64,000 nt of DNA from Yuukianura sp. NJ FZ-2021 (Eukaryota), in the NCBI GenBank assembly GCA_046563655.1, contig CM102286.1, positions 14,260,001 to 14,324,000 of the forward strand, in the 5' to 3' direction. Below, piece by piece: positions 7,738 through 53,792 of the stretch (within the stretch, counting starts at the first letter, position 1; every line of letters begins with the position of its first letter). A model generated the notes under the pieces. That model searched no databases, was not told the DNA's origin, and saw nothing but the letters and a program-made list of their open reading frames with translations. The translations under genes and the position numbers were made by a program.

Positions 7738-9410
7738 GACCAATTTCACAAAAAACAGACTAGAATGAAAAGATTTTTTTTAAAGAATCGTCAATTTTCC
7801 AGCTCCGTCGCGCCGTTACCAATTTTGGTGTCGCGTGATAACGTCAAAGTGGTTGTGTTTTTGTTTGAAAATGGTGATTGCAGTTGTTTGGCTCAATTTG
7901 AAAAAATTTGAATCCATTTTTGATTCCCGCTCGAGCGAAATGATCATCGTCTACATTTTCCGAATGGGATTCAGACAAAGGCGTCTCTTTCATTCTTCAG
8001 TCATTTCATGCTACAACCACGAGTTAAAAGGTGGTTGACACTTTGTGTTTCATTTCAAATTCAAATTTACGCGCCAATTTACGTCTCTCCAAATGACGCA
8101 GGAGGGAAAGCCTAGACGATTCGGCCGATTTTTGCAAATTCCAGGATCTGACATTTTTTCATAGTTCAAAAACAGTTTAGCTTTTTGCATCGTATCGGCT
8201 CCACTTTATCTATTGAAATCAAACACTTTTGATCAAAGATAAGCAAAATCATGGCCAGAGAGCGGCAAATTTGAAAAAAAATCCTGATTCACCTTTTAAA
8301 ACTGCAGTAAACAAGACGTCAAACAGTGTCTTTGTCCTGGAGTGAGAAATTTAACACTTTTGAAAAACAATAGTAATATTTATTACAAAAAGATAAAAAT
8401 GAACAGATCATTTTTCAAAAATTATTCGAAATTCTTCATTTTTTTTTTAAATTTTCCCGCCCACTGTCTATTGTCTCCGGGCGGCAGGAAGGAAAAACGT
8501 AACTGGAGGAAACGAAATTCAAAAAATCATTTCCATTGTTTCTTTTTTTTTAGACTATCAGAAAAACTAATCTGTGAGTTATTAAGTTCCCGCCCACTTT
8601 TGAATTTGGAAAAATACTTGGAACATGCTTCAAGCATTACTTTACCAATTTTCAAAATTTCCCTCCTGATAAAATTTTCATAATGTATGGACACAGGAGT
8701 TCACATTTAGGAGAGTGTTGAGCAATTATTCTGTCCCTCAAGCATGACCAAAGAAAATTTATTCCAACTAAAGTCTGCATCAGCAAAAAAACTAAACTTT
8801 TTTTTTTGAATTTTTGAATTAAAAACGCTGAACTTTGCAATTCCGAAGCCTAAGAAGATCATGACGACTTGGAATTCTATTTTTAAAACATTTCTGCTGA
8901 AACATGCTGTACAATCACTTTCGTCCTTCAAACTTTTTTTTCTTTTGATACAATTTTTTTTGAGTTACGAACTTTTTTGCTATGCATTTACGTAGAAGTG
9001 AAGAGGTGAAGAACCTCTTTTGAACAATTTAAATTTGAAATGCGAAAAGTTCTACTTTTAAGAGATAAATGCTCCTTTACAATTCCATTTTCAACTTGCT
9101 TCATGATTTTTCTCATCTAAATGCCGTAAGAACTTTTCAAAAGTACTAATTTTGTTCGTCTTTTTGTGTTATTACAAAACTGAAAAAGCTAAAAAAGTGA
9201 CAATTACTAAAAAGTTTCAAAGGATTTTGATTTGAAAAGAAGCAGAAAATGTAAAATGCAGAATCATTATTAGAGCGGGAGTGAGGAATCAAGAGTCATG
9301 ACTCATGAGTCAAAGAATCGACACATCCACAACAATGTGTAATTGTTACTACTAGATTTGAAAGCAATGTGAGTTGAATTGTTACACTTGTAACGTTACA
9401 AAATGACTAC

Positions 9411-10553
9411 TAATGTAAAATGACTCGTGTAATTTTGAAAAATTCAAAGGATTTCACACTTCAGGAAGAAAAAACCTCAACATTTTCGAAAAGAATTTTG
9501 TAAAGGCTAAAATTTAAAGTTGGTATACTCAAAAGTGCATTGTTTATTTGAACAATTTCTTGTACAAGAATGACAAGTGAATTGCGCATGTGCAGAAAAA
9601 AGTTCAAGAGTTGTACGCATACACGTGGGTTTTGACCTGCCTTTTTGATCTTTGAAGATCGCATTCCATCATGACATTTTGAAATTCAAAATGTTGATTT
9701 TGACACTCGAGATTTTAATTGTTGAACTTAAAGTTCATTTTGACATTCAAAATGAAAGCGGGATCTGTTTAAAAAGACATTTCAATCGTTTTTTATTTGA
9801 ACACATGACTTGGCGCTCTTATTTTTTGACACATGTCCGTTTGATTCTTGAGATTTCAAAAAATTGTTTTGAAAGGCGCCAAAGAACAAAAGGTGAAACA
9901 GTAACAATTAAGAGGACCTTGTGCTCAAAGTGCCAAGTACTGTAAACTTAAGTGTCTCAGATTTCAAAATTTCGACACAAAAAACTTTTTTTTTATAAAA
10001 AGTGGCAGTAGAAACCGGCAAAATCCAAAGTTACAAAGTTACGTCCAATTGCGCATGCTCACCACTGTAATTACAAAGTCAATTACTGTAATTTTCTAGT
10101 CGGATTTGAAAGAAAATGAGGATGAGGCATCGATTCCTTTCAAATCATTGTCTTATCTCAATTTTTTTGTATATTGAAGTGTGAAATTACTAAGTGTTGG
10201 TAATTACATTTTTTTTTCAAAATTTTGATTTTTTGTTTGTGAATATTGTCATGTGACCCCATGGGGGTGAGAGAAGGAATTCAACTGTGGGCAGGTCATT
10301 TTTTTCCGTGCGAAGATTTGCAATCTGACTGTCAAAATTCAAACTGCTTCTGCCTAGAAAATGCCAACTCATCTTCATTATCTTCTCATCTTTATTTGAT
10401 CTTCTACAGAGAGATCAATCATTTTCGCGCCAAAAATTTTGACATGCAGCGTCTTTCAAAAAGTAACGTTTTAATTTGACCGGTATACATTTTTCATTCT
10501 CAAAATTGCGGAATTTTGAATTCCTTCAAAGCAGAGCAAAGTCATGACATGTT
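9411..10553 (+). repeat. About 1.15-kb non-coding segment duplicated in direct orientation at 43551-44761
   Basis: Colinear high-identity match from taatgtaaaatga(c/g)tcgtgtaattttg to agagcaaagtcatgacatgtt. Confidence 0.93.
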
Positions 10554-34998: not shown

Positions 34999-35223
34999 CT
35001 ACATAATTTTTCTAAACCTACGTAGCAGATAGTGAAGGCGTATAAAAATCTGCCAAAGTTCTTCTTCCTTTTGATCCAATTCGGCAGTGTCTTCCTTCGT
35101 CTGCTTTTGAACTATAATTTGTCTATCCAGTTCTACATATGCTTTGAACAACACAATTTCAAAGTCTTCCAATTCGTAGAATTTCTTCAACAAATCGGTT
35201 GCTGAACCTCTGAAAAACTTCAT
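34999..35223 (-). CDS. Small orphan protein, MKFFRGS family copy 2 (74 aa from ATG)
   Basis: Intact ORF MKFFRGSATDLLKKF...KAYVELDRQI...ELWQIFIRLHY. Confidence 0.5.
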   Translation of the reverse strand: MKFFRGSATDLLKKFYELEDFEIVLFKAYVELDRQIIVQKQTKEDTAELDQKEEELWQIFIRLHYLLRRFRKIM

Positions 35224-36144
35224 TTCAACTTGTGGACGTTCTTCGAAACTAGTTTTCAAAAAAAAGTTAAAAAGCGGTGTGTTAAATAAGAAGAGGAAAT
35301 GGTTATGCTTCTGTTCTCTTGAAATGTCTAAGGAGCTGCAATGGATTTAAAATTTCAAACATTTAAAACAGAAACTAAAGTAAAAAAGGGACAATTTGAA
35401 GTACAGGAATGAAAATCCTTTCAAAAATTTTAAAAATAACATTACAAAAATACCAAACAATGTCGAATTGCTCGTTTCTCTGTTTTAGCCTTAGGAAACG
35501 GTTTAAAAATTGTTTAAGACCGAGGTTGACCTATTTTTGTCTAAAGTTTTGGAAACGTTCACATTTTTTTAAATTGTGGATACAAATAATTTTTTTTGGA
35601 ATTTAATAGCTGTATTTACTATAGTATTATTCTAACATAGTATTAATATAGTATTAATAGTATTTCTAAATATAAAGTATTAATAGTATTTCTAATCTAA
35701 CACAACTTAATTACATTTAATGGCCCCAAATTTGCTCAAAATCAGTTTTTTTTCAAAACATATCGAAAAGTTTGTTCAAAATTTACCCCAAGGAGTCGCT
35801 TGTTCTAAAAATTTATAAGAGGTATGAATTTCACATGATGCGTCTTAATATATAGTTGTTTCAGGAACCCTATTTGAAAGTGAATAGACCAAAAGCTATT
35901 TTAGGTGTTTATTAAACGAATAACTTGAAAGAAATTATATTTGCTAAGAGAAATGTCATATTTACAAATTGGCACGATTCCTTGCCAGGAATAAAATATG
36001 GTAGATAAAAATGACGTACCTTTCAGTTAGTGTGACTTTTAATTTATCCCGCTACTACGGGTAAAAAATTACACTATAAATTAAACAAATTTTTTCAGCC
36101 TTAGAAGAGGTTCAAATCGTGATTAATATTTTTGAAATTTCTTG

Positions 36145-36590
36145 TTACCAATCTTCTTCAATATGCCTCAGTCGAATGTATATTTTCCAGAGCTCATCAA
36201 AGTGGAGGATGAGGTCAGTTGTACCTCTGCCTGTATTACCGACATTCAAAATTTTGTTATGAAGTGCGGTGTATGCTTTACCCATATCCCTAACCAAATT
36301 GCACAGGTTGTTGAGTTCAGCTACTCGTATTTGCTTCTTCATTACTCGCTCAACAATATTCACCAGACCTCAATTCTAAAGCGTTCGTTCAAGTTTTTCT
36401 TACTATAAGCTACTCAAAATTGAGGCTCATTTCCCAAACAAGAACCCATTTCAAAAATAGTTTTCGAGGCAATTATTTATGGACCATGCTAAACTCCCTA
36501 AGTTTTGAAACTGTTTCAAAATGCTTAACCACCAAACCCAACAATTTCTTCAACAAGTCGGTAGGTTGTCAAACCTCTGAAAAACTTCAT
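36145..36590 (-). pseudogene. MKFFRG family copy 3, 5' part frameshifted
   Basis: ATGAAGTTTTTCAGAGGT start, then a 4-nt insertion relative to copy 2 and stops. The 3' module KAYTALHNKI...ELWKIYIRLRH is open. Confidence 0.5.
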
Positions 36591-37068
36591 TTCAGCCTGT
36601 GGATTTTCAAAACTAATTTTCAACATATGACAGGAGTCTTTTATTATTTTTAAAAATGAGTTTAAAAACGTTGTTAACTCTTAACTTTAGTGCAAAAATT
36701 TTTAAACCCGAAACTCGGTAAAAAGGCTTTTAATATGTTTTATTCATTCCTATGCAGTGTGATAGTTCCACGACCATCCTTCAATTGTTTTTGAGAAAGT
36801 TTTAATCGTTATTTGCGGCTGCTTGGACTTTATGGAAACAATATAAAAATACGTCATATTTTGAAATTGACACAATTTCTTGCCAGGAATAAAATTTGGT
36901 GGATAAAAATGACTTACCGTTCAGTTAGCGTGACTTTCAACTTTTTTCGCTAATACGGATTAAGAAATTCCCTACAAATTAAAAAGAATTTTTTAGTCTT
37001 GGAGGAGCTTCAACCTGTTTAATTAATATTAATATTTAATATTATTAAAATAATATTTTTGAAACTTG

Positions 37069-37456
37069 TTACCAGTCTAGTACCATATGCCACAGCCGAA
37101 AGTATATGTCCCAGACCTCATCCAATATTAATTTGAGGTCAGTTTTGCCTCTTCCTGTTTCACCGACATCCCGAAATTTGTTACGAAGTACAGTGTATAT
37201 TTTACCCACATCAGTACACAAATCGAACATGTTTTCTAGTTCAGCTACTGTTAGTTGGTTGTCCATTACTTCGTACAACAATAGTCACCAGACCTAAATT
37301 GAGTTCGAAGGCGTTCCTTAAAGTTTTTCTTACTGAGCTATTCAAAACAGGTTTAAGGACCCATTTCAAAAATAGCTTTGCAGCCAATGGTTTAGGGACC
37401 ACGTTAAGTCCACATGATACTTTTTCAAAATATGTAACCACCCAACCAAGACGCAT
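37069..37456 (-). pseudogene. Family copy 4, diverged tandem duplicate of copy 3
   Basis: DNA similarity between about 35950-36545 and 36850-37450 including flanks. Module VAELENM...GRGKTDL...EVWDIYFRLWH. Split reading frames. Confidence 0.5.
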
Positions 37457-38825
37457 TGCTTAAAAGTGTATATGGTTATCGAAAATTTAAGGTACGGCAT
37501 GGGAGTGTTTTATTATTTTCCTTTTGCTTCTGCGCACTTTGGAACTGATGCTAGAACTTCGAAATTAAAAATCAATCTGTTCAAGGTGGGTATAACAACA
37601 ATCAAATTGTTTATTCTACACAAGGTTGTCCAGTTTTAATAGGAATTGGAGGAAAAAATTGTTTTCTTCCAAAAATATGAAGTAGTGAGGTACTGGACAA
37701 ATACAATCAGTTGCTATAGCAACCTTGAATCTATTGGTACTGTTCATTTTTTTTACTGTGCAGTTGTTGATAGTAATTTTTCGGGTGTCGTTCTTAGAAA
37801 CTGCTTAGGTTGAAGTGATTCAACCAGATCCACATGTATCCAGAAATTCAACTATTACGCGTATATTTCTTTTTAGTATTTCAAGCAGAAATTGAGAAGG
37901 CAATGATTTTAGCCTGCAGCTGAATCTGAAGAGGTAGCGCTATCGCTATTCGACTCTGAACCGTCTTCCCCTAGGGGAATTATAATCGGATTGACAGGAT
38001 TGTGAACAAACGTTTCGGCTAATTTTTCGAGCTCAAAAATCTTTTCTTCAAGTTCTTGGACATGTCTGCAACACTGAATCCACAACTGATGAATGCGTTC
38101 GGTTTGCAGCATTTCTCGAACAAGAATTAGGACGTGTTTAATCTTGGATGTAGTATTACGTCGTCATACTTCTGCTGAAAATATCAGCTAATTTAATAAT
38201 TACCAACCTCTAAACAAAAATGTCTCGAGACGGATTCGTTTCGTTTTCTTGTCGCATCATTTTCTCAACTTGCATTTCCGGTACAACAGCATTCTTTTTT
38301 CCAAGGACTCTGAGTTCTGCGACAGTCATCTCCCAGAACGACTCTTCGTCGGCTGGTATCGGCACATTTTTCTCGCAGAAGCAGTTCATTCAGCCACATT
38401 ATCGTAATCCACAGGAACTGCAGATGGATCTAAATGCTCCGGGGCGACTTGTCGTTTAAACTGTCGCTCTTCATTTACATTTTCAAGGTTAACAATCATT
38501 TTCTTTTCATCTGAAATCTTAGGTTTCCCCATTTTGCCAATCAAATTACTCCGAAAATAAAATCGCATTTTAAGAAAGAAGAATTTTCTAAAGTTTAAAA
38601 ATATTTTGATGATAACTTTTCCTTAACTCAACCTAATACGTTTCTATGAGTGACGCTTGAAAAATTACAATCAACAACTGCACAGTAAAAAAAAAATGAA
38701 CAGTAGTCGATCATTTTCACCATCTGTGTACCAACAAGTTTAAATAACAAGTGTAAATCTGGATGTAAAAAAACTAATACAACAACATGTTTAAAAAACA
38801 AGTTAAACCAAAAAAAAAAAAGGTT

Positions 38826-38895
38826 AACGCCTTTCCGACCCTGTAGCAATTTGTACTCAGGGTAGACTTCATGCTTAACCAACAGTCGGAAAGAA
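38826..38895 (+). pseudogene. Isolated decayed copy of oxidoreductase exon 4
   Basis: aacgcctttccgaccctgtagcaatttgtactca...catgcttaaccaacagtcgg matches about 41800-41865. Confidence 0.8.
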
Positions 38896-39769
38896 GATGC
38901 CAACGTATTACTTCATTTTTAGGTTTTTTAGGAATTAAAAAAAATTATTTATTTTTAAACTTTTTCGTTGTATTTTTAGCCTACAGCGTTCCCACGGAGC
39001 AACCGTTGTTTATGTTTGACCTGGCGTTTGTGACGTCACACGTCGAAAAAAAATTCAAAATCGACAAAATCTGAATTCATATTTGTGAACCCAAGTCCTC
39101 ATAATTCATTATCAATCAATTAACTTGATGATAGTGAGGTTATTATTGAGTCCCGCGTGACACGTACGTTTTCGTATTGTAATGAAGTTCGTCCGTTTCT
39201 CAACTTCCAAGTATCGTCACAATTTACATTTTCCTTTTGTGCTAATTCGCACATCAACTCATATTGATTGTCCTTTTTACATTATGTAAGTTTGGGCCGC
39301 TTATGGACCCAAACCAGGCAAAACTGGTTTATTCTCCTTTTTGTTACCAAATAGATTATGAGGAGTAACTTATTACTCCTGACTTCCGGTTTAGCGTTTG
39401 TCCCTGACCGTATAAATACGGCCAGAAGCCAGCCCAGTACAATCATTCAACTTCTTGCCTCTGCTCCGCTTGGAACAGAGTGACCTTTACTACTCGACAG
39501 TTTGACCTCTGCGAGGTCAAACTGCCTTTTCATTTTCTTTGAACTTTTAATAAAAAGTTATAGTTTTACCTTCCAACAAGGAAGGAAACAAAACTTGTAG
39601 TGTTGACCTTTGACCTTTATTTTATTTTAAGGCCATTTTCACTACAGTATTATTGGATTGCATTTGACAGTGTGTTTGTATGAGCTATGGGTTCACTCTT
39701 TTACATTAACGTACCTACATGAGAGTATGAAGTCATTCTGAGACAGAGGGCCCTTCAAATCAAAGGCAA

Positions 39770-40688
39770 ACCGTTGCGCAAGTTGTACAATCAGTTCAAG
39801 CCAATGCAATAATCACTTTTGACTAAATTTTGCTCCTGTGTATCGCCGGAACCATGCAGCTCTTGGTCTACTGGAGAACAGTTCAGTCAACATAGTCGCA
39901 AGCATTTTAATCTGACTTCTCACGGGACAAATCATGGCTGGTTGTTTCGGAGCAGTCGTTCGGGTCAACAAGTTAGTGAAAACTGGAGTCGTGAGTAAGC
40001 TGATTGGGCTGACAATTTGCTTGTTAATTGGCTTCATATTTGGAGTCTGCGTTACTTCTGCGCTGTTTGCTGGTCCATGGGCTTCTCTGAAACATTGGCC
40101 AACTGATAAAATGCTGGGACGAGGAGGATCAGAAGTAATGCTGTTGGTGCTTTTGTGGCAATTTCTTCGGGTACTGGGGTCACTCTGTCTATTTTGGCTG
40201 GAAATGCTGCATCGGTTGTGGGAGTGGCCATTTCAGCGTCTCTTCTTCCTCCTGCAGTCAACTGTGATATGTTCCTGGGAATGAGTGCCCAGATTACCGT
40301 AAAATTCCAATTGGCTGGCTACAACCCTTATGCGACTCCTTGTGACAGTTACGTTGGAGACGGGAACCAATCAGATCATCTCTTCCGACGCGCACGCGTG
40401 AAGGCTACGACGTTCTGGATTTTTACTGCAAAAATGTCGTCATGGAGTACGGCCTTCTCGGAATCGTCAGTTTAGGTCATCATCGTCAAAATTATACTCA
40501 TTCTCATCAGTGTATTTCTCATTTTGAAACTCAAGGAAGTTGCGCCTCACACAACACGACAGAACGTAAATCGATTTTGGAAGGAAGATCTCAAGGTCAT
40601 GCGAGAGTACAACAAGACTCACGGCAGTTTCAATAAGCAAGCAATTCTTGCTGAATTGGCGGTACACATAATGCTGCTGAAATTTTAG
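39770..40688 (+). pseudogene. DUF389-family membrane protein pseudogene
   Basis: Across frames: TVAQVVQSV...TFD*, ALGLLENSSVNIVASILI*, GLTICLLIGFIFG, WPTDKMLGRG, GNAASVVGVAISASLLPPAVN, LKLKEVAP...FWKEDLK. Stops at 39824 and 39913 plus several frameshifts. Confidence 0.85.
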
Positions 40689-41351
40689 ACTCTCCTCTAT
40701 TAAACTTATTGTATACTCATTAATTAAGAAATTCGTTTTTTTTTCGATTTGTGACGTCATTTCCACAAAGTTAATGGCTTAGCAACCAAGCAACCGCGGA
40801 AAGCGTCACCTCTAATATTCCAAGGTAACTAAACAAAATGACACACCGCATTACTGAGGTACCGCTCGGTATAATTCCATTTTCCAGTTCTAAAACCGAT
40901 ATAAACTACAGGATGGATGACTGCGTACAATGGGTGGTTGAATGAATTTACTTTGTACTCCAACCGAACGAAAACGTTTGCACAGAAAAGTTAAAAACAA
41001 ACAATCCACCCCACTATATACTTACGCAAAAAAAAACTATGATTTATGATTTTAATTAAAATTAAAATCATTAAAATCATTAAAAATTATGATTTCTTAC
41101 ATAATTAACTAACGTAGTTAAGTTTTTTAGCCTTACGAAAACTAAGGATAAAGAGTAGGTGTCGAAGTTGACCTCAAGTAAAAACTGAAGTTACTTGTTA
41201 CCACGGTCACACTCTTCTAAATAACAAAGGTCACGGAAGGTCACGAGATTGCGACCAGTGTCAAGTGTTTTGTGTATTTGTTTAATGATATTCACACAGT
41301 AGTTAACTTGTTCTTTTCAGGATTGGTCGAAAAGTTTACTAAACGTTGAAA

Positions 41352-42506
41352 ATGTTGGACAAACCGCCTGAACCGAAGAAACCCATAACAATTTCAATTG
41401 TTGGAGCAGGAGAGCGGTAAAGTTCAAACTCTTTGGTGTGACCTTTGATTTATAATTCCAATCTAAACTGAATAATTGTACTTGTCAGAGGCCAGATTTA
41501 TGCTAGCTATGCCACTTTCTTTCCAAAATGGCTCAAGGTCGTTGCAGTCGCTGAAATCCATGAGGGCAAGAGACAGAAAATGGCACAAGTAAATCTTGAA
41601 AAACAAAATTCAAAAATAGTGGGCAAGTTTTAGAATTTAAACTTGTGGATTCTTTGTCAGGCATACAACATTCCTCCAGAGAATGTCTTCGGAGATTGGA
41701 AAGAGGTGACTTTACAGATAGTATTTGAATTTGTATCACAATTTGGATACACTTTTTGATGACCTTTGACCTTTTAAATTTTTCAGCTGGCTGCGCGAGA
41801 ACGCCTTTCCGACGCTGTAGCAATTTGCACTCATGATAAGCTTCATGCTGAGCCAACAGTCGGTTAGAACATGGCGGCTTTTACTTGATTCAATTTTTTG
41901 AAAAAGTTTCGAAAAACTTTTTTTTTGAATTGGCAGCATTTGCAAACCTAAAGTACAACATTTTGTTGGAGAAGCCAATGGCTGTGAGCTTAGAAGACTG
42001 TAGAAGAATAGTAGAAGCGATTGAATCCAACGGAGTGTTGTTTACCGTTGGTCATGTGCTGCGATACACCAAGTACATGAGCGTGGTCATGGACATTATT
42101 CAGTCCAAGGTCATTGGTGACATTGTCAACATCCAGCAACTGGAACCAATTGGATTCAAACACTTTGCTCATTCCGTACTGTCTTTTTTCTCAAAATTTT
42201 GAAATTCTAACATTTTCAGTGATTTTTGTTTCAAAAGTTTGTTCGAGGAAACTGGAACAACGAAGCAAAGTCGACGTTTGCTCTCATGTCAAAAACTTGT
42301 CACGATTTGGACTTGATTCGGTACATGATGGGGTCAAAGTGCATGGTCAGTCTGGAATTGACAAATTTTGAAAATTTCGAACAAAATTTGAACAATTTCG
42401 AAGAAAAACTTGTGTAATTTCAACTTCCATTTTAGAAAGTGTCGTCGTTCGGGACTTTGAAACACTTTCGGAAAGAAAACAAGCCGAGTGCAGCCGAAAG
42501 TGCTGT
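41352..42506 (+). pseudogene. 3'-truncated inverted duplicate of the Gfo/Idh/MocA oxidoreductase (first 7 coding exons)
   Basis: 41080-42559 is the near-identical reverse complement of about 51687-53154, including the upstream region. Frame and splice sites look intact but the last four exons are absent. Confidence 0.9.
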
Positions 42507-42601
42507 GTAAATTCAAAAAAATGCTAAATTTTCCAAAAATCCACAAGTTTTACAGAAATAATAATAATTTCATTTTCATAATTTCATACATAAAATAAAA
42601 T

Positions 42602-42678
42602 AATTTCATTTTCAGTAGAATAATAATAATAATAATAATAATTATTATTATTATTATTATTCTACTGAAAATGAAATT
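42602..42678. repeat. Near-perfect 77-bp palindrome with (TAA)7/(TTA)6 core
   Basis: aatttcattttcagtagaa(taa)7(tta)6ttctactgaaaatgaaatt. Confidence 0.95.
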
Positions 42679-43182
42679 CAGAATCTGATGATTCTTGGAT
42701 TCAATTTCTGAATTTTGGTGAATAAGTGCAGGTTCAATTTACTCACAACAACAAAAAATTTGTTCGGATGAGAAATTAATTGTGGAATTAATTACGATTT
42801 GTTAAGTTAATTATATTAACAAAATTAGTTGAGTAGAATAACTGAGTTAATATAACATTCCAGGATTGGAAAATTTAACAAGCTTAGGGTATGGATGCAA
42901 TCAAGTTTTTGAACTTTTACCGTAAGGCAGAAACAAATTTCAGAAAGGGGTTGAAACTTATTTTTGTAAGACTTGTATTAATAATTTAGTAAATTAATTG
43001 TAGTTGTCTTAAGTTAGTTAATTAAGTTTAATTAATTAAGTTAGTTTAATTAATTGAAGTGACTAACTGAGGCCCAACAGTCGTTGTGAGGTGTCCAATA
43101 CTTGAGTATCTTCCTTATTCCGAATGCCGTTCGTGAGTTCCTGTAGACATGTGCAGTGACATTGGGTTTGAATGGGCAGTAT
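42660..43182 (-). pseudogene. Inverted copy of the nanos terminal codons and 3'UTR
   Basis: Reverse complement of about 48361-48910. Encodes YCPFKPNVTAHVYRNSRTAFGIRKILKY with the stop TGA changed to TGG. Confidence 0.93.
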
Positions 43183-43331
43183 ACAGTTACAGTCTGCTTA
43201 TACGTAAATCATGCTGTCCTTCAATATGATTTAGTGTCACAAAAAAAATGGATGATCTTCAACTATATACAATTCAATAATGAGACGATAATTCCGTAAC
43301 TGTGATTTGATTGGAAGATGGAGCTACAAAC

Positions 43332-44908
43332 TCAAAATGCCAGGATTGCATTTTGCAGGTTGGTGATCATTCCCGTCAGAGTCTGAGCATCTTGTACAAG
43401 TTGAGCATAATCTTGCACCAAAACTCTTCGTATCGCGATTTCTGTGTTAATTCCAGATAGTGCTTCTCTTAAGGCGTCAAGCAAACTTTGCAGTTCTGCC
43501 AACACGCCATTTCTAATAATCGGATCCGGACTTCGCTGAAAAATTAAAAATAATGTAAAATGAGTCGTGTAATTTTGGAAAAAAAAATCAAAAGATTTCA
43601 CACTTCAGGGAAAAAAACCTCAAGAATTCATCAAGATTTTCAAAAGGGAATTGACCAAAACTTTAAGTTTGAAGTTGGTACTCAAAAGTGCATTGTCTAT
43701 TTGAACAAGAATGACAAGAGTAGGATCAGAGAGCTATGCTTATGCAACTGCGTTGTGCTCATGCGCATAGAAAAATCGAGAGTTGTGCTCATACACTGTG
43801 CAAAACAACGTGGATTTTGACCTGCCTTTTTGATTTTTGAAAATCGCATTCCATCATAACATTTTCAAATTCAAAGTGCTGATTTTGACACTCGAGATTT
43901 CAATTATGTTGAACTTAAAGTTCATTTTGTCATGAAAGCGGGATCTGTTTAAAAACGACATTTCAATCCTTTTATTCATTTAAACACATGACTTGGCGCT
44001 CTTATTTTTTGACACATGGCCGCTTGATTCTTGAGATTTCAAAAAAACTGTTTTGAAAGGCGTCAAGAAAAAAACAAAAGGTGAAACAGTAACAATTAAG
44101 AAGACCTTGTGCTCAAAGTGCCACGTACTGTAAACTTAAGTTTCTCAAATTTCAAAACAAGAAAACCCTTAAAAAAAATTTTTTTTAATAAAAAGTGGAA
44201 GTAGAAACCGGCGAAATCCAAAGTTACAAAGTTACGTCCAATTGCGCATGCTCACCACTGTAATTACAAAGTCAATTACTGTAATTTTCTAGTCGAATTT
44301 AAAAGAAAATGAGGATGAGGCATCGATTCCTTTCAAATCATTGTCTTATCTCATTTTTTTGGGGGGTTTTGAAGTGTGAAATTACTAAGTGTTAGTAATT
44401 ACCTTCTTTTTTTTCATAGTTTTGAATTTTTTTTGTGAATGTTGTCATGGGGTAGTAAAATGACCCCATGCGGGGGTGAGAGAAGGAATTCAAATGTGGA
44501 CAGGTCATTTTTGTTCCGTGCAAAGATTTGCAATCTGACTGTCAAAATTCAAACTGCTTCTGCGCAGAACATGCCAACTCATCCTCATTATCTTCTCATC
44601 TTTATTTGATCTTCTACGCAGAGATCAATCATTATGGCCTTAAAAATTTTGACACGAGGCGTCTTTAAAAACGTAACGTTTTCATTTGACCGCTAAATAT
44701 TTCGTTCTCAAAATTGCGGAATTTCAAAATCCCGCAAAATAGAGCAAAGTCATGACATGTTTGCGGAAGATATGAAATCTAGAAAAATTCTAACGTCCAA
44801 AACGAAATTCCTTACCATCAGCGATATGTGGAGGTCCATCTCCGATTGCTTCAAAAATCCACGATCAACAATTTCTTGGAGAACAGCTCGCAAATAGTTG
44901 AGTGCCAT
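43332..44908 (-). CDS. Two-exon orphan protein, 98 aa, predicted helical/coiled-coil
   Basis: Exon 1 44908-44816 (MALNYLRAVLQEIVDRGFLKQSEMDLHISLM, donor GTAAGG). Exon 2 43535-43332 (acceptor TTTTTCAG; RSPDPIIRNG...NAILAF*). Phase-0 join, AAAATG start context. Confidence 0.65.
43551..44761 (+). repeat. Copy of 9411-10553 inside the intron of the 98-aa orphan gene
   Basis: Direct colinear match with small indels. Confidence 0.93.
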
Positions 44909-45764
44909 TTTGTAGTAAGTTGTGTAAAGTAGTAGTTTACTAGGGCAAATCAATTGATGCTGAATGGGACCTGTCGACTTGGAATATGGATCAGAAATGG
45001 GGAGCAAACGCCTTTTCCAGTCACTAGTCCAGTGAACTAGTCAAGGTCATGTCCAAATAGTCTAGTCACAGACATTTCATGTAAAAATTTTATTACTATT
45101 TCAAAGTTAAGAAGCAACAGAAGTCAAATTGAATATTACCTGAAGCATTAACTTTGATAATTGGAAATGATTTGTCCGTGTGTTTCACGAACAACTCATT
45201 TCCATTTATCAAAGCCGTTGATAAACTAAAATTTTCCAAAGTTTCCAGAAAAAAAATGGAGCGATTCATTTGGTTTGACATGTAGAGTAGATTCATAGTT
45301 GTGCAGTGTAGTTAAAAGTAAAAAATATAATTGAATTTTCAAAAGTGTACAAACTTCCCGTCGTACATACAATTCTTGGACACGAACGATGGAATACCTT
45401 CAACATTTGATTTTCCCTCTAGCATGTGCTTCTTTTCCAGTTCCTGCTGAATCCATGCTAATCCAAGAAAAACAAAAGCCCAACTGAGGGTAAACAGAAA
45501 TAAAACCATTGTCATGAGGTGAAGAAATTGATTTTAAATTGCATGCAATTGGCATGGCAACACAGCGTAACATTTACGTAAGTTGTTAGTTACTTTGGTT
45601 GTTGAACTCTGAAAGTGGAGAAAAAGCAACAGCCGAGCTTTCAAAGTTCATTTTTAACTTTGAGTTGCAACTCCACATCACGCAGGAGCAAGGTCAGCCT
45701 TAGGTCATCGCCAATTTCTGACATTTTGGAAATTCCTTTCGACTTTTCGTAAAACCAAACCAAA

Positions 45765-46721
45765 ATGCCGGTCACCGTTGGCCTCAACCCGCTTCCTTTT
45801 CCAAATTTGGCCAACAATGAGCACTGTCAGGAAATGTGTGACGTAAGTGACTCAAAAAATGGAAAAGCAAAAGTCAAGATCAAAATTTTGACTTTTCTCT
45901 TCTGTTTTCAGGTGCCAGCGGAGATGCTGCGTTTGCGATGCGATCCGTTCATCCGACTCGTTTCGGTAACATGGTTTATTTTTGAAAAGAAAAATGTACA
46001 TGAAGTTTGAAATTTCAAATTTTTTGAATTTTCCCGCCAAATCAGATCCCGACCAAGAGCTACTTGTTCAAAAGTTGTGTCAATCCGTGTGCTCCGCAAG
46101 ACTCTCTGGATCGTGCCTTGACTGCTTGCTACGACCATCATCGGTGAGTTGCTCAAAAAATCCAAAATTTTTAACAATTTTACACTGCGCATGTGCAAAA
46201 ATGTATTTTTTTTTAACTTTCAGTCAATTTTGGGTTCCGAAACCTGGAGTTGTGATGCAGTGTGAGACGTATCGTCTCTTTCCTTTTGGACGGTGAGTTG
46301 ACGCAACCAAAATTTTGAAGTTACTGCGACATTTTTTGAGGTAATTGATTTTGGTTTCAGTGCACAAGCTCGTTTGTGTCGCCTGCAGTGTCTCCCCGAC
46401 TGTCCGCTGACTCAACCATGTCGTAAGACTAAACACTATGTAGTTTTTTTGTTTTAAAATTTTGAATTTGCTTTGTCATTTTGAACATGACTATACATTT
46501 TACTTTCAGCGACACAAACTCAAGTGTGCGTCAACAGTGAACCGTACCGCAACGACAGCAATCACATGAACTGCAGCATTGGCGGACCACACATCTCCAA
46601 CAGCGGTAAAATTCAAAATTCAACACTTTTGCTTTCAAAATTTGATTGTAAATTTAAATTTTCAAAATTTTCAGCTCGTGGTTATTCTCGTTCTTACGCC
46701 GGATCGTTCTACAATTGCTAA
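45765..46721 (+). CDS. CFAP276: CFAP276/C1orf194-like (DUF3695) ciliary/flagellar protein, 167 aa
   Basis: Seven exons (45765-45842, 45912-45965, 46046-46143, 46224-46292, 46361-46422, 46510-46605, 46675-46721) splice in frame to 504 nt. Motifs DPFIRLVSIPT, PCAPQDSLDRALTACYDHH and C-terminal SIGGPH...GYSRSYAGSFY resemble C1orf194 as I recall it. Confidence 0.8.
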
Positions 46722-47021
46722 ATTCTGGAACCACAAGACGACAAAATCATTTCAAGTAAACTCAACCAAAATTCCAAAACTTTTCTTTCAAAATTGTTGG
46801 AGCGAAACAAGAAATTTTAAGGGAGAATATCATACTACTAAAACGTTAACTCACAAAATATTTTTGAACAAGAAATAAACTTTCAACATCAGTACAAAAG
46901 AGTTTGTCGTTGACTTTTAAGTAAAAGATTTTTTTTTGAAAATCTGAACGCCATCTATTGGCAGTTTTTGAAAATTTGTGTTGCGAGTGGCGTCCAACTT
47001 TGAATTTGCCGCTATAGCGAA

Positions 47022-47184
47022 GAACAAAGAAGAGCGTCTCTGATTGGTCCGCTGAGAACAAAGAAGGCCTTCTCTGATTGGTTCACTGGGAACAAAGAAG
47101 ACCTTCTCTGATTGGTTCACTGGGAACAAAGAAGACGTTCTCTGATTGGTCAGGTAAGAACAAAGAAGAGCCTCTCTGATTGGT
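47022..47184. promoter_or_regulatory. Five 34-bp tandem units, each AACAAAG plus CTGATTGGT (inverted CCAAT box), upstream of nanos
   Basis: Units start at 47022, 47056, 47090, 47124 and 47158. Inr-like TCAGTT at 47245; ATG at 47354. The repeat is certain, the regulatory role is inferred. Confidence 0.7.
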
Positions 47185-47353
47185 CTATTTTTTCTTTGTC
47201 TGAAATTTTCAACATTCCTTTGTTCTTTTGACTCGAGGGCTTCGTCAGTTCCATTTCAGCCGTCAACCAGAGCACATCTAAACTTTTTCAAGGTTTTTCA
47301 AAATTTTGAAAAGTGGTTTCTAAACCGATTTTTTTTTTTAAAAACTACCAACC

Positions 47354-48448
47354 ATGGACCCCATTGCCATCATTGATCTGCCAAAGGAACTACTCCAGTC
47401 TGCCATGAAAGTGTATCCAGGGATACTCCGTCTGTCTCTAACTGTATCAGATTCTGCTTCCGAAAAATCCTGTCATCGCAAGGTAAGCGCGGGAAATTCA
47501 CTCCGATTACAAAATTATTCCAAATTTTTTAGAAATTGCCAAAAACTAAAATCGTTTTTTTGAAATTAAGTCACTCTAATTGTTTTTTTTTCAGGAAGTG
47601 ACCCTGGAGCAGTTCGGACTGAAAAACAAAGACGAGTCAACTCCTGGAGTTTCTGGACAAAGGCCAACCCACCTAAACATGGACAAAGGTCAACCAGCAA
47701 ATGAAGGCTTGAGGTCAAGGTCAACCGGAATCGGAATGGACTTGCGTCTTGGCCAACTCAGCCACATCATCCGTCAACTGCTCGGTGTGACATCGCAAGA
47801 CGGTACTCCGGATCGGTTCATCGGATCGGAATTCGGCTGGAACCAGGACGAAACCGGTAAGTTCGAAATGAAATATGTAATTAGGCTAAATCTTAGTCAC
47901 GAAGATGTCACGAGGTCATGTGTCAACTCGGCAACTAACAAAATTCTTTGTGTTTTTTTTCAGAATCGTGGATTTACTGCGATGGAAAAGGCAGCAAGGA
48001 TGACACTTTTCCGCAATTTGGCGGTAAGTTTGAATTTCAACTCTGGAAGTTTTTTTAAATTGTAATTTTTTGAATATGTGTTTGATTTTTTTGTTGTGTT
48101 TGAACAGGAGCGGACTACTACGGAGGATGGACCACCCACTACCGTGGCACCAACTTGGACCGAGATGGCAGTTGCAGAAGTTCCGGAACTCGTCGACGAG
48201 GCCGACGGACGGAGTGCACTTACTGCAGGAGCAACCGAGAAACCATCCAGTTCCAGCGGTCACACTCACTCTACCGGTTTGGTCGTGTCGAATGTCCGAT
48301 TCTGCGCAAATACATCTGTACCGTCTGCGGAGCTACTGGAGACTTCGCACATACGCTCAAATACTGCCCATTCAAACCCAAGGCCACTGCACATGTCTAC
48401 AGGAACTCACGAACGGCATTCGGAATAAGGAAGATACTCAAGTATTGA
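47354..48448 (+). CDS. nanos: Nanos-family CCHC zinc-finger RNA-binding protein, 263 aa
   Basis: Exons 47354-47482, 47595-47856, 47964-48023 and 48108-48448 join in frame (792 nt). CTYC-x12-H-x9-CPILRKYICTVCGATGDFAHTLKYCP. Confidence 0.92.
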
Positions 48449-48904
48449 ACACCTCACAACGACTCATCGGCATAAGTTAGTCACCTCAATTAATTTAATC
48501 ACTAACTCAATTAATTAATTATACTTAACTAATTAACTTAAGACAACTAATTAATTTAGTAAGATATTAATACTAGTCTTACAAAAATAAGTTTCAACAC
48601 TCTTCTGAAATTAGTTTATGACTTACCGTAAAAGTTCAAAACCTTTATTTGTATCCATACCCTAAGCTAAGCTTGTTAAAACTTTTCAATCCTGGAATGT
48701 TAGCTTAATTTAGTTCTCTTAATTTAGTTTAGTCTACTCAATTCATTTTGTTAATTTAGGTTAATAAAATTAATTAATTAATTTCTCATAAAACAAATTT
48801 TTTTGTTGTGAATAAATTGAACCGGTTTGTATACACCAAAATTAAGAAATTGAATCCAAAAATCATTCCAAAATCATCAGATTCAGAATTTCATTTTAAG
48901 TAGA

Positions 48905-49370
48905 ATAATTGTCAATGTAAAATTTTGTTTCTTTGTTTTTTGAGCTTTTGACTGATTTAATTTTAAGTTTAAAGATTAATTTGGAAGTTCTTGCTGTTAT
49001 TTGAATTTGGAAACTGTGAGGACCTTGTTTGTTTTTCTGGAACTCTCGGCGCCAAAAACGTAGATGTGTGAATCTTTAAGAAAAAGTTAAAGTTAATTAC
49101 TAATTAGCTTAACAATTAAGTGAATTCAGACACACCAAATACTTCCTGCGGACAAGTGAGGATATTATCTTTGTTTCCAGTTCCACGTTCCAAAAATTCG
49201 GATCCAAAATTCAGATTTTGAAAAAACTGCTTTCAAAAACAAAATTTGGTTTTCAAAAAAGTTTTTTAAAAATGGAGTCAAGTGAAGCAGAGAGGCTTTT
49301 AACGACTGTTGTTTCAGCATGAAGTTTATTCTGAGTACTTTCTGCAGCGTCAGAACAACGTTCTCACTCA
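48905..49370 (-). pseudogene. Third, deleted and diverged oxidoreductase copy
   Basis: Direct match to about 50710-50978, then 51155-51200 (internal deletion), then an exon 4 fragment at about 49300-49370 matching about 52365-52435. Confidence 0.88.
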
Positions 49371-49399
49371 GTCATCCATCCAAAAAAAAACGTCATAGG

Positions 49400-49803
49400 C
49401 AGTTTTTCCGAAACCAGTATTTGACCATTCCTGCTTGTTTTTTCGTTTATTTTTAGAAATTTAAACAAGAACAAGAATTTTTGAATCGAGATGGCCCACA
49501 GGAATTTAAAAAAAAAGAAAATTCAAGTTGAAAAATAGTTAAATTAATAGCATAAAGCTATTACAATAGTATTATACATATATAATTATAAAATTATTTG
49601 AAAAAAGTAGATTTTTAAAGTTATAGGAGAGTGAGTAGTCGAACCGGAAGAAATTTATTAAACTTTTCCTACTCCTTTGGACTTTGTTTCAACTGAAAAC
49701 AGATCTGACATTTTTTTTGGTATTTTTAATTATTTATTTATTTGTGTTATGCAAATAGTCCTCTGTTTATTTGTGCAGTATTTCAAAATTTCAGGAAATT
49801 CGT
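49400..49803 (+). repeat. Diverged copy of RGS 3' flank/UTR (about 32291-32720)
   Basis: Shared blocks cagttttt(a/c)cgaaaccagtatttgac, aaacaaga, tttgtttcaact, tatttatttatttgt in the same order. Confidence 0.8.
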
Positions 49804-50769
49804 GATCGCCATTTCTTTTTGCGATGTCAGAACTCATCCAGCACTTTTTGCATTTGGAGTGCATTGTTGTTCAAAATGATTGTTTGATTAATCGATTGAA
49901 GGTAGTCTGCATCCTTGTCTAAGTGCTCACAATTGCCTATAGTTCGGCATGCCCTATTTGGCCAAAAGTAAAATGGCCAAAAAGTGAAAAGCTCAGAAAT
50001 TAAATGGTCAAATAGTAAAACGGGTGTTGACCAATTCACCTGGAACGTTGTCTACACCTTTCATTGCATAGCTTGATGATAGCTGTACGCAAATGCTGTC
50101 GTAGCGTACGTAGAGTCTTCATTTCTTCTGACCGCATCAATCCCTGATTTCCTTCCTAAAAACAAATTTTAAAATTCCTCATTTAAAATTTTGGGTGCCA
50201 GAGTGGTAGAATGCAACTTTTGTATAAATCAAAATCCAAATTTTAAGAGTTACGTCAGGCTTGGTTATTTAGGCACAGGAAATTTTTTTTTTCTAAGAAC
50301 ATATTAAGGTTAGGATGAAAACAAATTGAATTCAATGTCTTTACCAGCAACATCAGCGTTGATTGTAATGAATCGTTTGTGTATTTCTCCGTTTGAAACT
50401 GTCCAAGAAGTTGATAAAACTAAAATTTTCTGAACTCGAGAGACAAAATTTGTGTTTGGAAACTTGGGAAAGTTTATAAAAAATCCAAGGTGACCCCTTT
50501 AAGTACCCCTTAAGTAAGTCCCTCAAATTTCAAAAATAGCACTTCAAAAATATCAAGGTTCAACTCTCCTTCTCCTATTCAACCAAAATTCCAAACTTTA
50601 TTTTTCTCAAAATTCTTGGACTGAAACAAGGCATTTCAACGGACATGCAGTGATCGCCAGCTAAAAGAATTACACCCAAAAATCACTAACTTTGTTTAAA
50701 TTTGAATTACAATAATTCTCAATGCAAAATCATTTTTTTGTTCTTTTTTTTTAAATTTTGGTTTAAAGA

Positions 50770-52876
50770 TTAATTTGGAAGTCCTTGCTGTTGTTTGAAC
50801 TCTGAAATTGTGATGACCTTGTTTGTTCTCCTGGAACTCTCGGCGGCAAAAACGTAGATGTGCGAATCTTAAAAAAAATCAAGGTTAATTACTGACTAAC
50901 TTAACAATTAAGTGAATTCAGGCATACCAAGTGCTTCCTGTGCACCAGTGAGGATATACTCCTTGTTTCCAGTTGCGCATGCGTAGATGAAACTCCGCAT
51001 GAGGGCATGGTCACCTCCAAAATGCCCGCTTTGTGGCAGGTCGGCGTAAAAGTCGTTTGGAATTTGGCGAATGTCAATGACTTTGCGTTGATTTGTGAGA
51101 AAATCAAAGTGAATAAGTTCTTGTGACCCCAAATCACAAGTCAGTTCTCCCAGCGTTCCAAAAATTCGGATCTAAAATTCAAATTTTGAAAAAACTACTT
51201 AAACAAGGTAGGGCGATGCTCAAGGGTTGAGCATTGGTCTTCTAAAAAAATTGAACAAATTTTTAGCAGTAGTTGATTCATTACTTGTCTGTCGCATTGA
51301 AGTTGAGTGAAGGCCACCATGCTGAAACTAGCTGTGGCGCCATTTTCAAATTCAAAATTCACAACCTGGTTGTCACAGACATCATTCTCTGCTTCATAGA
51401 CGCATTTCCCATAGTCTCCTACCTCCAACGCATGTGTCAAGTTTTCAATGTCTGAAACAAGGTCAAAGGTCAAATTTTTTCAGCCAAAATTTAAAGTGAT
51501 CGGAATTGCTGTCATACCGATAGTCCCAGAAGGTACGACGACACTGATTGGCCAGCCAGTCACTCCTTGTTCCACAAATCGTTCCAGATAAATTTTCTTC
51601 GCAGAGTAACAGCATGATCGTTCATAGTCACAGTGAAGACAGTTTCTAAAAAGTGTCAAAAAGTTGAAATTAAAGAAATTTCAAAATTTCTGTAAAATTT
51701 TGAATTTTTTGACTTTACACAGCAGTTCCGGCTGCACTCGGCTTGTTTTCTTTCCGAAAGTGTTTCAAAGTCCCGAACGACGATACTTTCTAAAAACAAA
51801 CGTTGAAATTATCCAAGTTTTTTTTTTTAAATTGTTGAAATTTTGTTTGAAATTTTCAAAATTTGTCAATTCCAGACTGACCTTGCACTTTGACCCCATC
51901 ATGTACCGAATCAAGTCCAAATCATGACAAGTTTTTGACATGAGAGCAAACGTTGACTTGGCTTCGTTGTTCCAGTTTCCTCGAACAAACTTTTGAAACA
52001 AAAATCACTGAAAATGTTTGAATTTCAAAATTTTGAGAAAAAAGAAATTACGGAATGAGCAAAATGCTTGAATCCAACTGGTTCCAGTTGCTGGATGTTG
52101 ACAATGTCACCAATGACCTTGGACCGAATGATGTCCATGACAACATTCATGTACTTGGTGTATCGCAGGACATGACCAACGGTAAACAATACCCCGTTGG
52201 ATTCAATCGCTTCTACTATTCTTCTACAGTCTTCTAAGCTCACAGCCATTGGCTTCTCCAACAAAATGTTGTACTTTAGGTTTGCAAATGCTGCCAATTC
52301 AAAAAAAAAGTTTTTCGAAACTTTTTCAAAAAATTGAATCAAGTAAAACCTGGCATGTTCTAACCGACTGTTGGCTCAGCATGAAGTTTATCATGAGTGC
52401 AAATTGCTACAGCGTCGGAGAGACGTTCTCGCGCAGCCAGCTAAAAAATTTAAAAGGTCAAAGGTCATCGAAAAGTGAACCAAATTGTGATACAAATTCA
52501 AATAATAAAGTCACCTCTTTCCAATCTCCGAAGACATTCTCTGGAGGAATGTTGTACGCCTGACAAAGAATCCACAAGTTTAAATTCAAAAAACTAGGCT
52601 ACCTTTTTTGAATTTTGTTTTTCAAGATTTACTTGTGTCATTTTCTGTCTCTTGCCCTCATGGATTTCAGCGACTGCAACGACCTTGAGCCATTTTGGAA
52701 AGAAAGTGGCATAGCTAGCATAAATCTGGCCTCTGACAAGTACAATTATTCAGTTTAGATTGAAATTATAAATCAAAGGTCAAAGGTTAAACCAAGAAAT
52801 TTGAACTTTACCGCTCTCCTGCTCCAACAATTGAAATTGTTATGGGTTTCTTCGGTTCAGGCGGTTTGTCCAACAT
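50770..52876 (-). CDS. Gfo/Idh/MocA-family NAD(P)-dependent oxidoreductase (YteT-like), complete multi-exon copy
   Basis: Rossmann [44 protein letters not shown]...[15 protein letters not shown]. About 11 short exons ending ...QQQGLPN*. Confidence 0.92.
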
Positions 52877-53792
52877 TTTCAACTTTTAGTAAACTTTTCG
52901 ACCAATCCTAAAAAGAACAAGTTAATATTAACTACTATGCGAATATCATTAAACAAATACACAAAACACTTGACACTGGTCGCAATCTCGTGACCTTCCG
53001 TGACCTTTGTTATCTAGAAGAGTGTGATCGTGGTAACAACTAGCTTCAGTTTTTACTTGAGGTCAACTTCGCCTCCAACTCTTTCATCCTTAGTTTTAGT
53101 AAGGCTAAAAAACTTAACTGCGTTAGTTAATTAATTAAGTAATCATAATTTTTAAACTTAACTTTAAAAAAATCTTAAATTTTTACTGTAAATTTCGTTT
53201 AGATAACGGCGACACGCAAAGTGACCCTACCGGATTTAAAAATGGCGCGAAACTAAAAAATTTGAAATTGCACGAGATAATGGTGAAAAAAAAGAAGGAA
53301 GGGCAAAGGAGAAACTTTGCACTTGTTGGAATTCGCACTTTCTCTTTCTCTCTCTTCTCCGAGTGAGAACATTGATTAAACAGATTGTTTAATTTTAATT
53401 AATAATCTAAACTGTAAGTTATCTGTCGTTATCTAATTCTTATCTCGATTTTTTATGTTACAGTAAATCTACACTATAAATCAAAACCGTATCAACAGCG
53501 TTCTAGGTACTGTTAAGCTGATTTTCCACAATTTCTTTGAAATCACTTTAAAAAGCTTACTTTCTGTCCCAACGAATGAGCCTGAATCTAAAATGCAAAA
53601 CAATTGAGTTGATTACTTCTTTGTTATTTTGTTTACAGCACTGGCGGTAGAAGCTTAACTGTGAATCCGGATTTGGGTGTTAGCCAATTTGTCACATTCC
53701 TGATTTTTTGCAATACCAGGTCACCTTCTACAGACCAGTTTGAGCAACCGCTGGGCATCCTGATTCTACGGAACAATTCATTAACAACGGAA

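Follow-up and report, generated by a model that had tools for sequence, protein, structure and literature searches.

A small orphan gene probably lies on the minus strand of a 64,000-nt stretch of DNA (the window, in whose coordinates positions are given). The best explanation of the locus, to which we give an even chance, is that the gene is real, that its 3' end may come from duplication debris and that it is not under nanos-type control. Directly visible in the sequence are the ORF with its splice motifs, the duplication and its scar, and the lost signals; transcription, splicing and the 3' end, like the sequence of events, the pathway of repair and the function of the protein, are inferred. 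On this model, a resident orphan gene of small size, whose product has a short helical region and a coiled-coil-like helix, would sit in unique spacer between the arms of an inverted duplication. This would have copied the end of a nanos gene, together with a neighbouring oxidoreductase gene, to a point 149 nt behind the orphan stop, and an end-joining event, now marked by a scar with a fold-back palindrome, would have cost about 2.8 kb. If the orphan is transcribed, its message would end within the 149 nt that belong to it or, with greater likelihood, at an ATTAAA at 43050 or 43032; in the latter case the nanos-derived DNA would act as a generic terminator and not as a nanos control cassette.

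Gene model and coding signal

The gene model and the segment overlapping its intron are as follows.

44908-44816, minus strand: orphan coding exon 1, 31 codons, start ATG within CAAAATG, donor GTAAG
43536-44815, minus strand: proposed intron, 1,280 nt, predicted, with the coding signal falling at both ends
43535-43332, minus strand: orphan coding exon 2, 67 codons plus TGA, acceptor TTTTCAG
43509-44761: low-copy duplicated segment, found in three places only, covering almost the entire orphan intron

The exons join in phase 0 to give 98 codons and a stop. A sequence-only reading of this DNA had described a two-exon, 98-aa minus-strand ORF stopping at 43332, and this was borne out: start, stop, canonical donor and acceptor and matching phase are all present, the start context is good and the splice motifs are strong.

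Coding signal was scored using a codon-position model for which 66 long ORFs of the same genome, taken from 38 stretches of 10 kb, served as training set. The proposed frame ranked top of six for both exons, and its scores were reached by 7 of 300 stop-free shuffles for exon 1 and 9 of 300 for exon 2. Exon 2 scored above 77% of 217 held-out coding windows; the model is weak, because 7% of 1,133 mixed ORF tails scored above exon 2. Sliding windows gave an in-frame signal that rose near the ATG, fell at the donor, came back at the acceptor and faded across the final ~20 codons. By shuffles and sliding windows, frame-specific coding statistics were limited to the orphan exons, as far as a weak model can tell. 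Simulated DNA (1,140 kb) yielded two comparable ORFs, neither with a similar coding score; this chance rate is a lower bound because the thresholds and splice patterns were fitted to the orphan ORF after it had been seen. Judged by its sequence, the orphan ORF is probably a real gene. The coding tests show coding origin and not present use, and a recently dead gene would score alike.

Copies of the intron segment were found at 9400-10553 of the window (83%) and on another contig, C3 (76-88%), where the copy runs through the acceptor and 27 nt into exon 2; two of the three changes in the nine codons in common are silent, too few for significance. A high-copy transposon was rejected as the nature of the intron, since the segment occurs in three places only; nearby repeats, unlike it, gave dozens of copies in the same search. 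A 189-nt core of this repeat (44172-44360 versus 9979-10167) is 96% identical against 83% for the whole, contains GCGCATGC and CCAAT-like words, and may either act as a regulatory element or mark a conversion tract.

Orphan protein and relatives

The structure predicted from the single sequence of the exon 2 product is one long helix (residues 5-66, pLDDT 95.8), in agreement with the sequence-only reading, which had called the protein helical and proposed a structure prediction. Its heptad hydrophobic moment, at one of three angles tried, was equalled by 3 of 2,000 shuffles, and the predicted helix looks coiled-coil-like; the likeliest role would be that of a small coiled-coil binding partner.

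Homologues were searched for using each exon as a separate query. Neither exon had a homologue in its own genome, where both are single-copy, and the search there for paralogues lacking the nanos UTR, also proposed earlier, returned none. For exon 2, there was no relative among 1.84 billion protein representatives, none among near or longer proteins, none in viral contigs, no usable Atlas match and no Foldseek match, and the only Pfam hit was Laminin_II, below threshold (E 0.084). Two contig matches of exon 2 (L060 and L077), short and bacterial and lying around the seed word, were dismissed as chance among the matches listed. Exon 1 with intron read-through gave no Pfam match and Atlas values of 0.90-0.91, weak by the Atlas calibration.

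A serious though lesser possibility is that the ORF is a dead relic, untranscribed or recently silenced in a dump of duplicated fragments, with the nanos tail behind it by accident. The setting fits this, with 3,562 of the 4,446 bases of 41080-45525 falling within identified duplicated pieces and the neighbours broken. No TATA or Inr match was found by a simple motif scan within 250 nt of the ATG, and the ESM recognition values of 1408 and 1747 compare with a mark of 2300, which by the tool's own account is not decisive on reality. What stands against a relic is the frame, intact in both exons and phase-matched between strong splice motifs behind a good start context, and the failure to find a parent copy of either exon in the genome; the adjoining fragments have parents elsewhere in the genome and the orphan exons have no copies elsewhere. 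Expression of the orphan as modelled is held to be slightly better than a coin toss.

Inverted duplication and putative repair scar

The segments of the duplication and the spacer that separates it from the orphan are listed below.

47354-48448, plus strand: parent nanos, intact, four exons, 264 aa, AATAAA at 48763 and 48811
48361-53155: source arm, nanos tail followed by the full oxidoreductase gene on the minus strand
41080-42540, plus strand: truncated GFO/IDH/MocA oxidoreductase (PF01408), 5' part and upstream region, cut inside an intron
42541-42601: patch of short local repeat pieces in place of ~2.8 kb present in the source arm, with an AATAAA on the plus strand at 42594
42602-42678: perfect palindrome of 38 bp where nanos and oxidoreductase sequence meet, none in the window being longer
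42656-43094, minus strand: decayed nanos 3'UTR and flank, with ATTAAA at 43050 and 43032, AATATA at 42817 and AGTAAA at 42743
43095-43182, minus strand: copied nanos coding tail, the final 88 coding bases, starting at the codon for the last zinc-ligand Cys
43183-43331, minus strand: unique spacer, 149 nt, with a Pumilio/Nanos-type element and a weak ACTAAA at 43235

The nanos copy is only part of a larger arm, 41080-43182, which is inverted relative to 48361-53155. Identity is 93% between 41080-42540 and 53155-51686, and 80.6% between the nanos copy (43182-42656, minus strand) and 48361-48909; the divergences, 0.03-0.10 per site, do not settle the order of events. More oxidoreductase gene fragments at 38826-38917 and 49217-49399 indicate repeated local duplication.

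Taken as one stretch, 42541-42655 is self-templating to an extent matched by none of 150 random stretches. The palindrome is perfect although the surrounding DNA is ~10% diverged from its source, and it is either young or kept by repair. Palindrome and patch together would be a fold-back scar at an end-joined break. Fold-back templated inverted duplications at double-strand breaks are described for yeast (PMC11724301); in both, a short piece of the break flank is repeated perfectly in inverse orientation (38 bp at this locus, mostly 5-34 bp in yeast), whereas the pathway proposed here is deduced from sequence and the stem is partly a simple AAT repeat.

The junction might alternatively be a source of regulatory RNA. 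The truncated oxidoreductase copy could be read on the plus strand through the palindrome into antisense nanos, or the orphan message could run into the hairpin, and the resulting double-stranded RNA could tune nanos. The oxidoreductase upstream region and 5' exons are kept at the identity given above, the hairpin fold has z = -10 and the antisense matches the nanos tail at 88 of 91 bases, but the plus-strand AATAAA at 42594 comes before the palindrome, and the stem is half AAT repeat, matching nanos only past its last AATAAA. Fold-back repair alone would yield a perfect palindrome, and Rfam gave no match across 41000-50000. Either route is thought highly improbable.

Parent nanos and decay of its copy

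That the parent is a genuine nanos is shown by its matches to zf-nanos (E 6e-20) and to fly Nanos in PDB (E 5e-17); a word-index search with it returned nothing at E 1e-8. The genome has six zf-nanos matches at five loci, on contigs C1, C4 (two), C5 and C8. The N-terminal exon of the window nanos is shared with L007 and has no Pfam match; this lineage-specific N-terminus is common only to L007 among the five paralogues, and its identification as an F-box was rejected for want of a Pfam match. Tandem 34-bp repeats lie upstream of the window nanos (window 47022-47191), each with AACAAAG and a reversed CCAAT box, which we take to be sites for the factors Sox/TCF and NF-Y, respectively. The same repeat type lies upstream of L007 (205-275), 0.78 Mb away, at 81-86% identity, and the repeats are likely a conserved promoter module. 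UAGU, presumably a Musashi-type motif, is enriched in the 3'UTRs of both the window nanos (7 versus 2 expected) and L006; in DNA comparison, the UTR of the window nanos had no similarity to the UTRs of the other nanos loci.

In the copied coding tail, there are three changes, all protein-altering, and the stop has gone from TGA to TGG, leaving the tail stop-free as far as 43053; no Pfam match remains. Of the UTR positions, 326 of 399 (82%) are identical in the copy. Neither of the two parental AATAAA signals is intact, five of ten TTAATT motifs are, and one of the seven UAGU is kept (6% of circular shifts are as low). The consensus of the Smaug recognition element is CNGG in a hairpin loop. 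Of the two CNGG in the parent and the one in the copy, none lies in a predicted loop.

The copy keeps 1 of 9 UAG (nominal p 0.005); selective removal was considered and not accepted as the cause; UAG was the lowest of 30 trimers, and the motif had been chosen because it was enriched in the parent. In six control duplicate pairs in the window, 74 of 136 TAG trimers were kept versus 95 expected (counts that are not independent), perhaps a TA-dinucleotide effect. Because TAG is poorly kept in all control duplicates, the loss of UAGU is no proof of selection.

The orphan might also derive from the N-terminal half of a complete nanos duplicate, having diverged and being spliced or fused to the copied tail. 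By eye, a handful of short words resemble the sequence near the nanos start, and the tail is open to 43053. Alignments of the orphan to both nanos paralogues were, however, at shuffle level, with 156 to 270 of 300 shuffles as good, the exon-1 protein search matched the true paralogue only, and the orphan has its own stop and no zinc finger. A decayed nanos 5' half was rejected on the local alignments, which were no better than shuffles, and this origin of the orphan is regarded as scarcely credible.

Expected 3' end of the message

The sequence-only reading had placed a co-oriented nanos segment about 150 bp past the ORF stop with no AATAAA between them. The gap is 149 nt on the same strand, and the minus strand is free of AATAAA from 43332 to 41000. 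The AATATA and AGTAAA reported in the copy are present; the statement that it retains only such variants did not hold, since the ATTAAA at 43050 and 43032 had been overlooked. Both lie upstream of AATATA and AGTAAA, and ACTAAA lies in the gap at 43235.

The first AATAAA or ATTAAA, an ATTAAA, is 281 nt past the orphan stop, inside the nanos copy. In seven reference genes with analyst-chosen stops, the first such signal was 62, 194, 311, 335, 395 and 732 nt past the stop, and one gene had none; it was thus more than 150 nt away or absent in six of the seven. A stretch of 149 nt with no signal is therefore normal, and it is reasonable to assume by default that the gene, if expressed, reads through into the copy. 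Fly poly(A) signals are ranked AAUAAA > AUUAAA > AAUAUA, with AAUAUA at ~10% of ends (PMC5707805). U-rich downstream stretches single out no site, so shorter and longer message forms are possible; none is strong behind either ATTAAA, which, with the use of AAUAUA in flies, allows for longer forms. An end near 43030-43010 would put 88 nt of dead coding tail and ~65-85 nt of UTR into the message, which would stop after about one-fifth of the nanos UTR. A displaced native poly(A) site is possible at 41056, beside a repeat end, with no support for it as templated or original. From the signals present, the orphan 3' end, if the gene is transcribed, may well lie in nanos-derived DNA; given expression as modelled, an end inside the nanos copy is favoured, at close to two-thirds.

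The spacer element TGTATATA starts at 43271 with AT before it and makes up a full Pumilio octamer with an upstream AUU. We take it to be of Pumilio/Nanos type from the full consensus. The background rate of the octamer is ~0.008 per 149 nt, and the match is only suggestive because it was one of ten motifs scanned; it fits a spacer that is a true 3'UTR. A UGUA core for Pumilio and Nanos contacts at -3 to -1 upstream are given in PMC11981137.

According to the sequence-only reading, the arrangement is a naturally assembled cassette that delivers the orphan protein to the germ line. The message would run to AATATA or AGTAAA, carry most of the nanos UTR and be germ-line localised or translationally gated, which we consider very unlikely; added repression through the Pumilio/Nanos-type spacer element is given just as small a chance. 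Several observations accord with a cassette: the segments are co-oriented, there is no AATAAA or ATTAAA in the first 280 nt, the copy keeps 82% of UTR positions and half of the TTAATT motifs, the spacer has a full Pumilio octamer with its upstream AUU, and AAUAUA is functional in flies (PMC5707805). Springtails, if the animal is one, have early germ-cell granules (PMC13120685). Comparison with the parent points away from a cassette: both canonical signals are gone, two ATTAAA come earlier, six of seven UAGU are lost and no Smaug-type loop is present. The parent, moreover, is only one of five nanos loci and need not be the germ-line one, and no DNA similarity was found between its UTR and those of the others. 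In the silkmoth, one of four nanos homologues is named in a review as inherited by germ cells (PMC13120685).

The premise that nanos 3'UTRs confer germ-line localisation and translational control comes from model species. A nos 3'UTR swapped between fly species already lowers granule nos by ~70%, and sister-species UTRs cluster much less (PMC10414811). The Drosophila nanos 3'UTR has Smaug recognition elements and mediates germ-granule clustering (PMC10164591, PMC10414811). The copied DNA resembles it in being the 3' end of a real zf-nanos gene and differs in having no CNGG in a predicted loop and in having lost its poly(A) signals and most UAGU. Overall, a long form with working germ-line control has little to recommend it.

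Surrounding fragments

Further fragments and repeats lie on both sides.

45259-45525, minus strand: broken membrane-protein gene fragment from contig C3, ~350 nt deleted, no Pfam match
39700-40684: DUF389 copy, intron-less, with a multi-exon parent on C3 (gaps of 56-98 nt)
37738-38705, about 39230-39650 and 40820-41040: multi-copy repeats beside the fragments

The fragment at 45259-45525, upstream of the orphan, is presumably chemoreceptor-like. Beyond the duplicated arm comes the end of a high-copy repeat and then the DUF389 copy, whose lack of introns marks it as RNA-derived; it may be a processed fragment that travelled with a mobile element. A second DUF389 copy is present on contig C2 (90%), and the window copy is flanked by multi-copy repeats. 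The multi-copy element at 37738-38705 has ~76-bp terminal inverted repeats and is probably a non-autonomous DNA transposon. In 34999-37463 there are decayed copies in tandem (35955-36538 and 36853-37447, 73%) with minus-strand helical ORFs; 34999-35346 gave no Pfam match.

Comparison with known systems

Partial duplications in Drosophila yakuba produce chimeric genes, shuffled UTRs and recruited stretches of non-coding sequence, as reported in PMC5460883. The present locus is alike in having a partial duplicate that ignores gene limits and lies beside a co-oriented gene, with a potential new UTR. The D. yakuba cases (same source) are tandem and backed by RNA-seq, with 24 of 76 chimeras up-regulated, whereas the duplication here is inverted, involves a 3' end only and is described at the sequence level.

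The locus also looks like the 'tinkering loci' of Drosophila, as described in bioRxiv 10.64898/2026.08.09.743762, and would be a candidate fragment-collecting locus outside flies. Both have fragments of unrelated genes clustered at the kilobase scale, some of them derived from other contigs, with transposon-like repeats adjoining and a lineage-restricted gene at the centre. Tinkering loci are defined by genome-wide spacing, long-read RNA and species turnover, whereas the likeness here is one of sequence layout. DNA-level recombination is dominant in them, and the DUF389 piece here is RNA-derived; the nanos and oxidoreductase pieces are local, unlike tinkering-locus fragments.

The boldest form of the cassette would be a natural nanos-3'UTR fusion, in which an orphan coiled-coil gene acquired its 3' end from nanos, a long isoform with its end near 42800-42720 is germ-line routed or gated, the Pumilio/Nanos element of the spacer brings the gene under the control of the neighbouring Nanos protein and the whole lies in a fragment-collecting locus outside Drosophila. 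It is an outside chance. No such natural fusion was found in the literature covered, which takes in few of the subscription journals and was seen in part. If true, the cassette would be the natural counterpart of a standard laboratory construct and an entry into the germ line by gain of a 3'UTR, not of a promoter. On the likelier reading, the locus would be another orphan gene beside duplication debris, and it would be a useful case in which to test how frequently partial duplicates provide new 3' ends.
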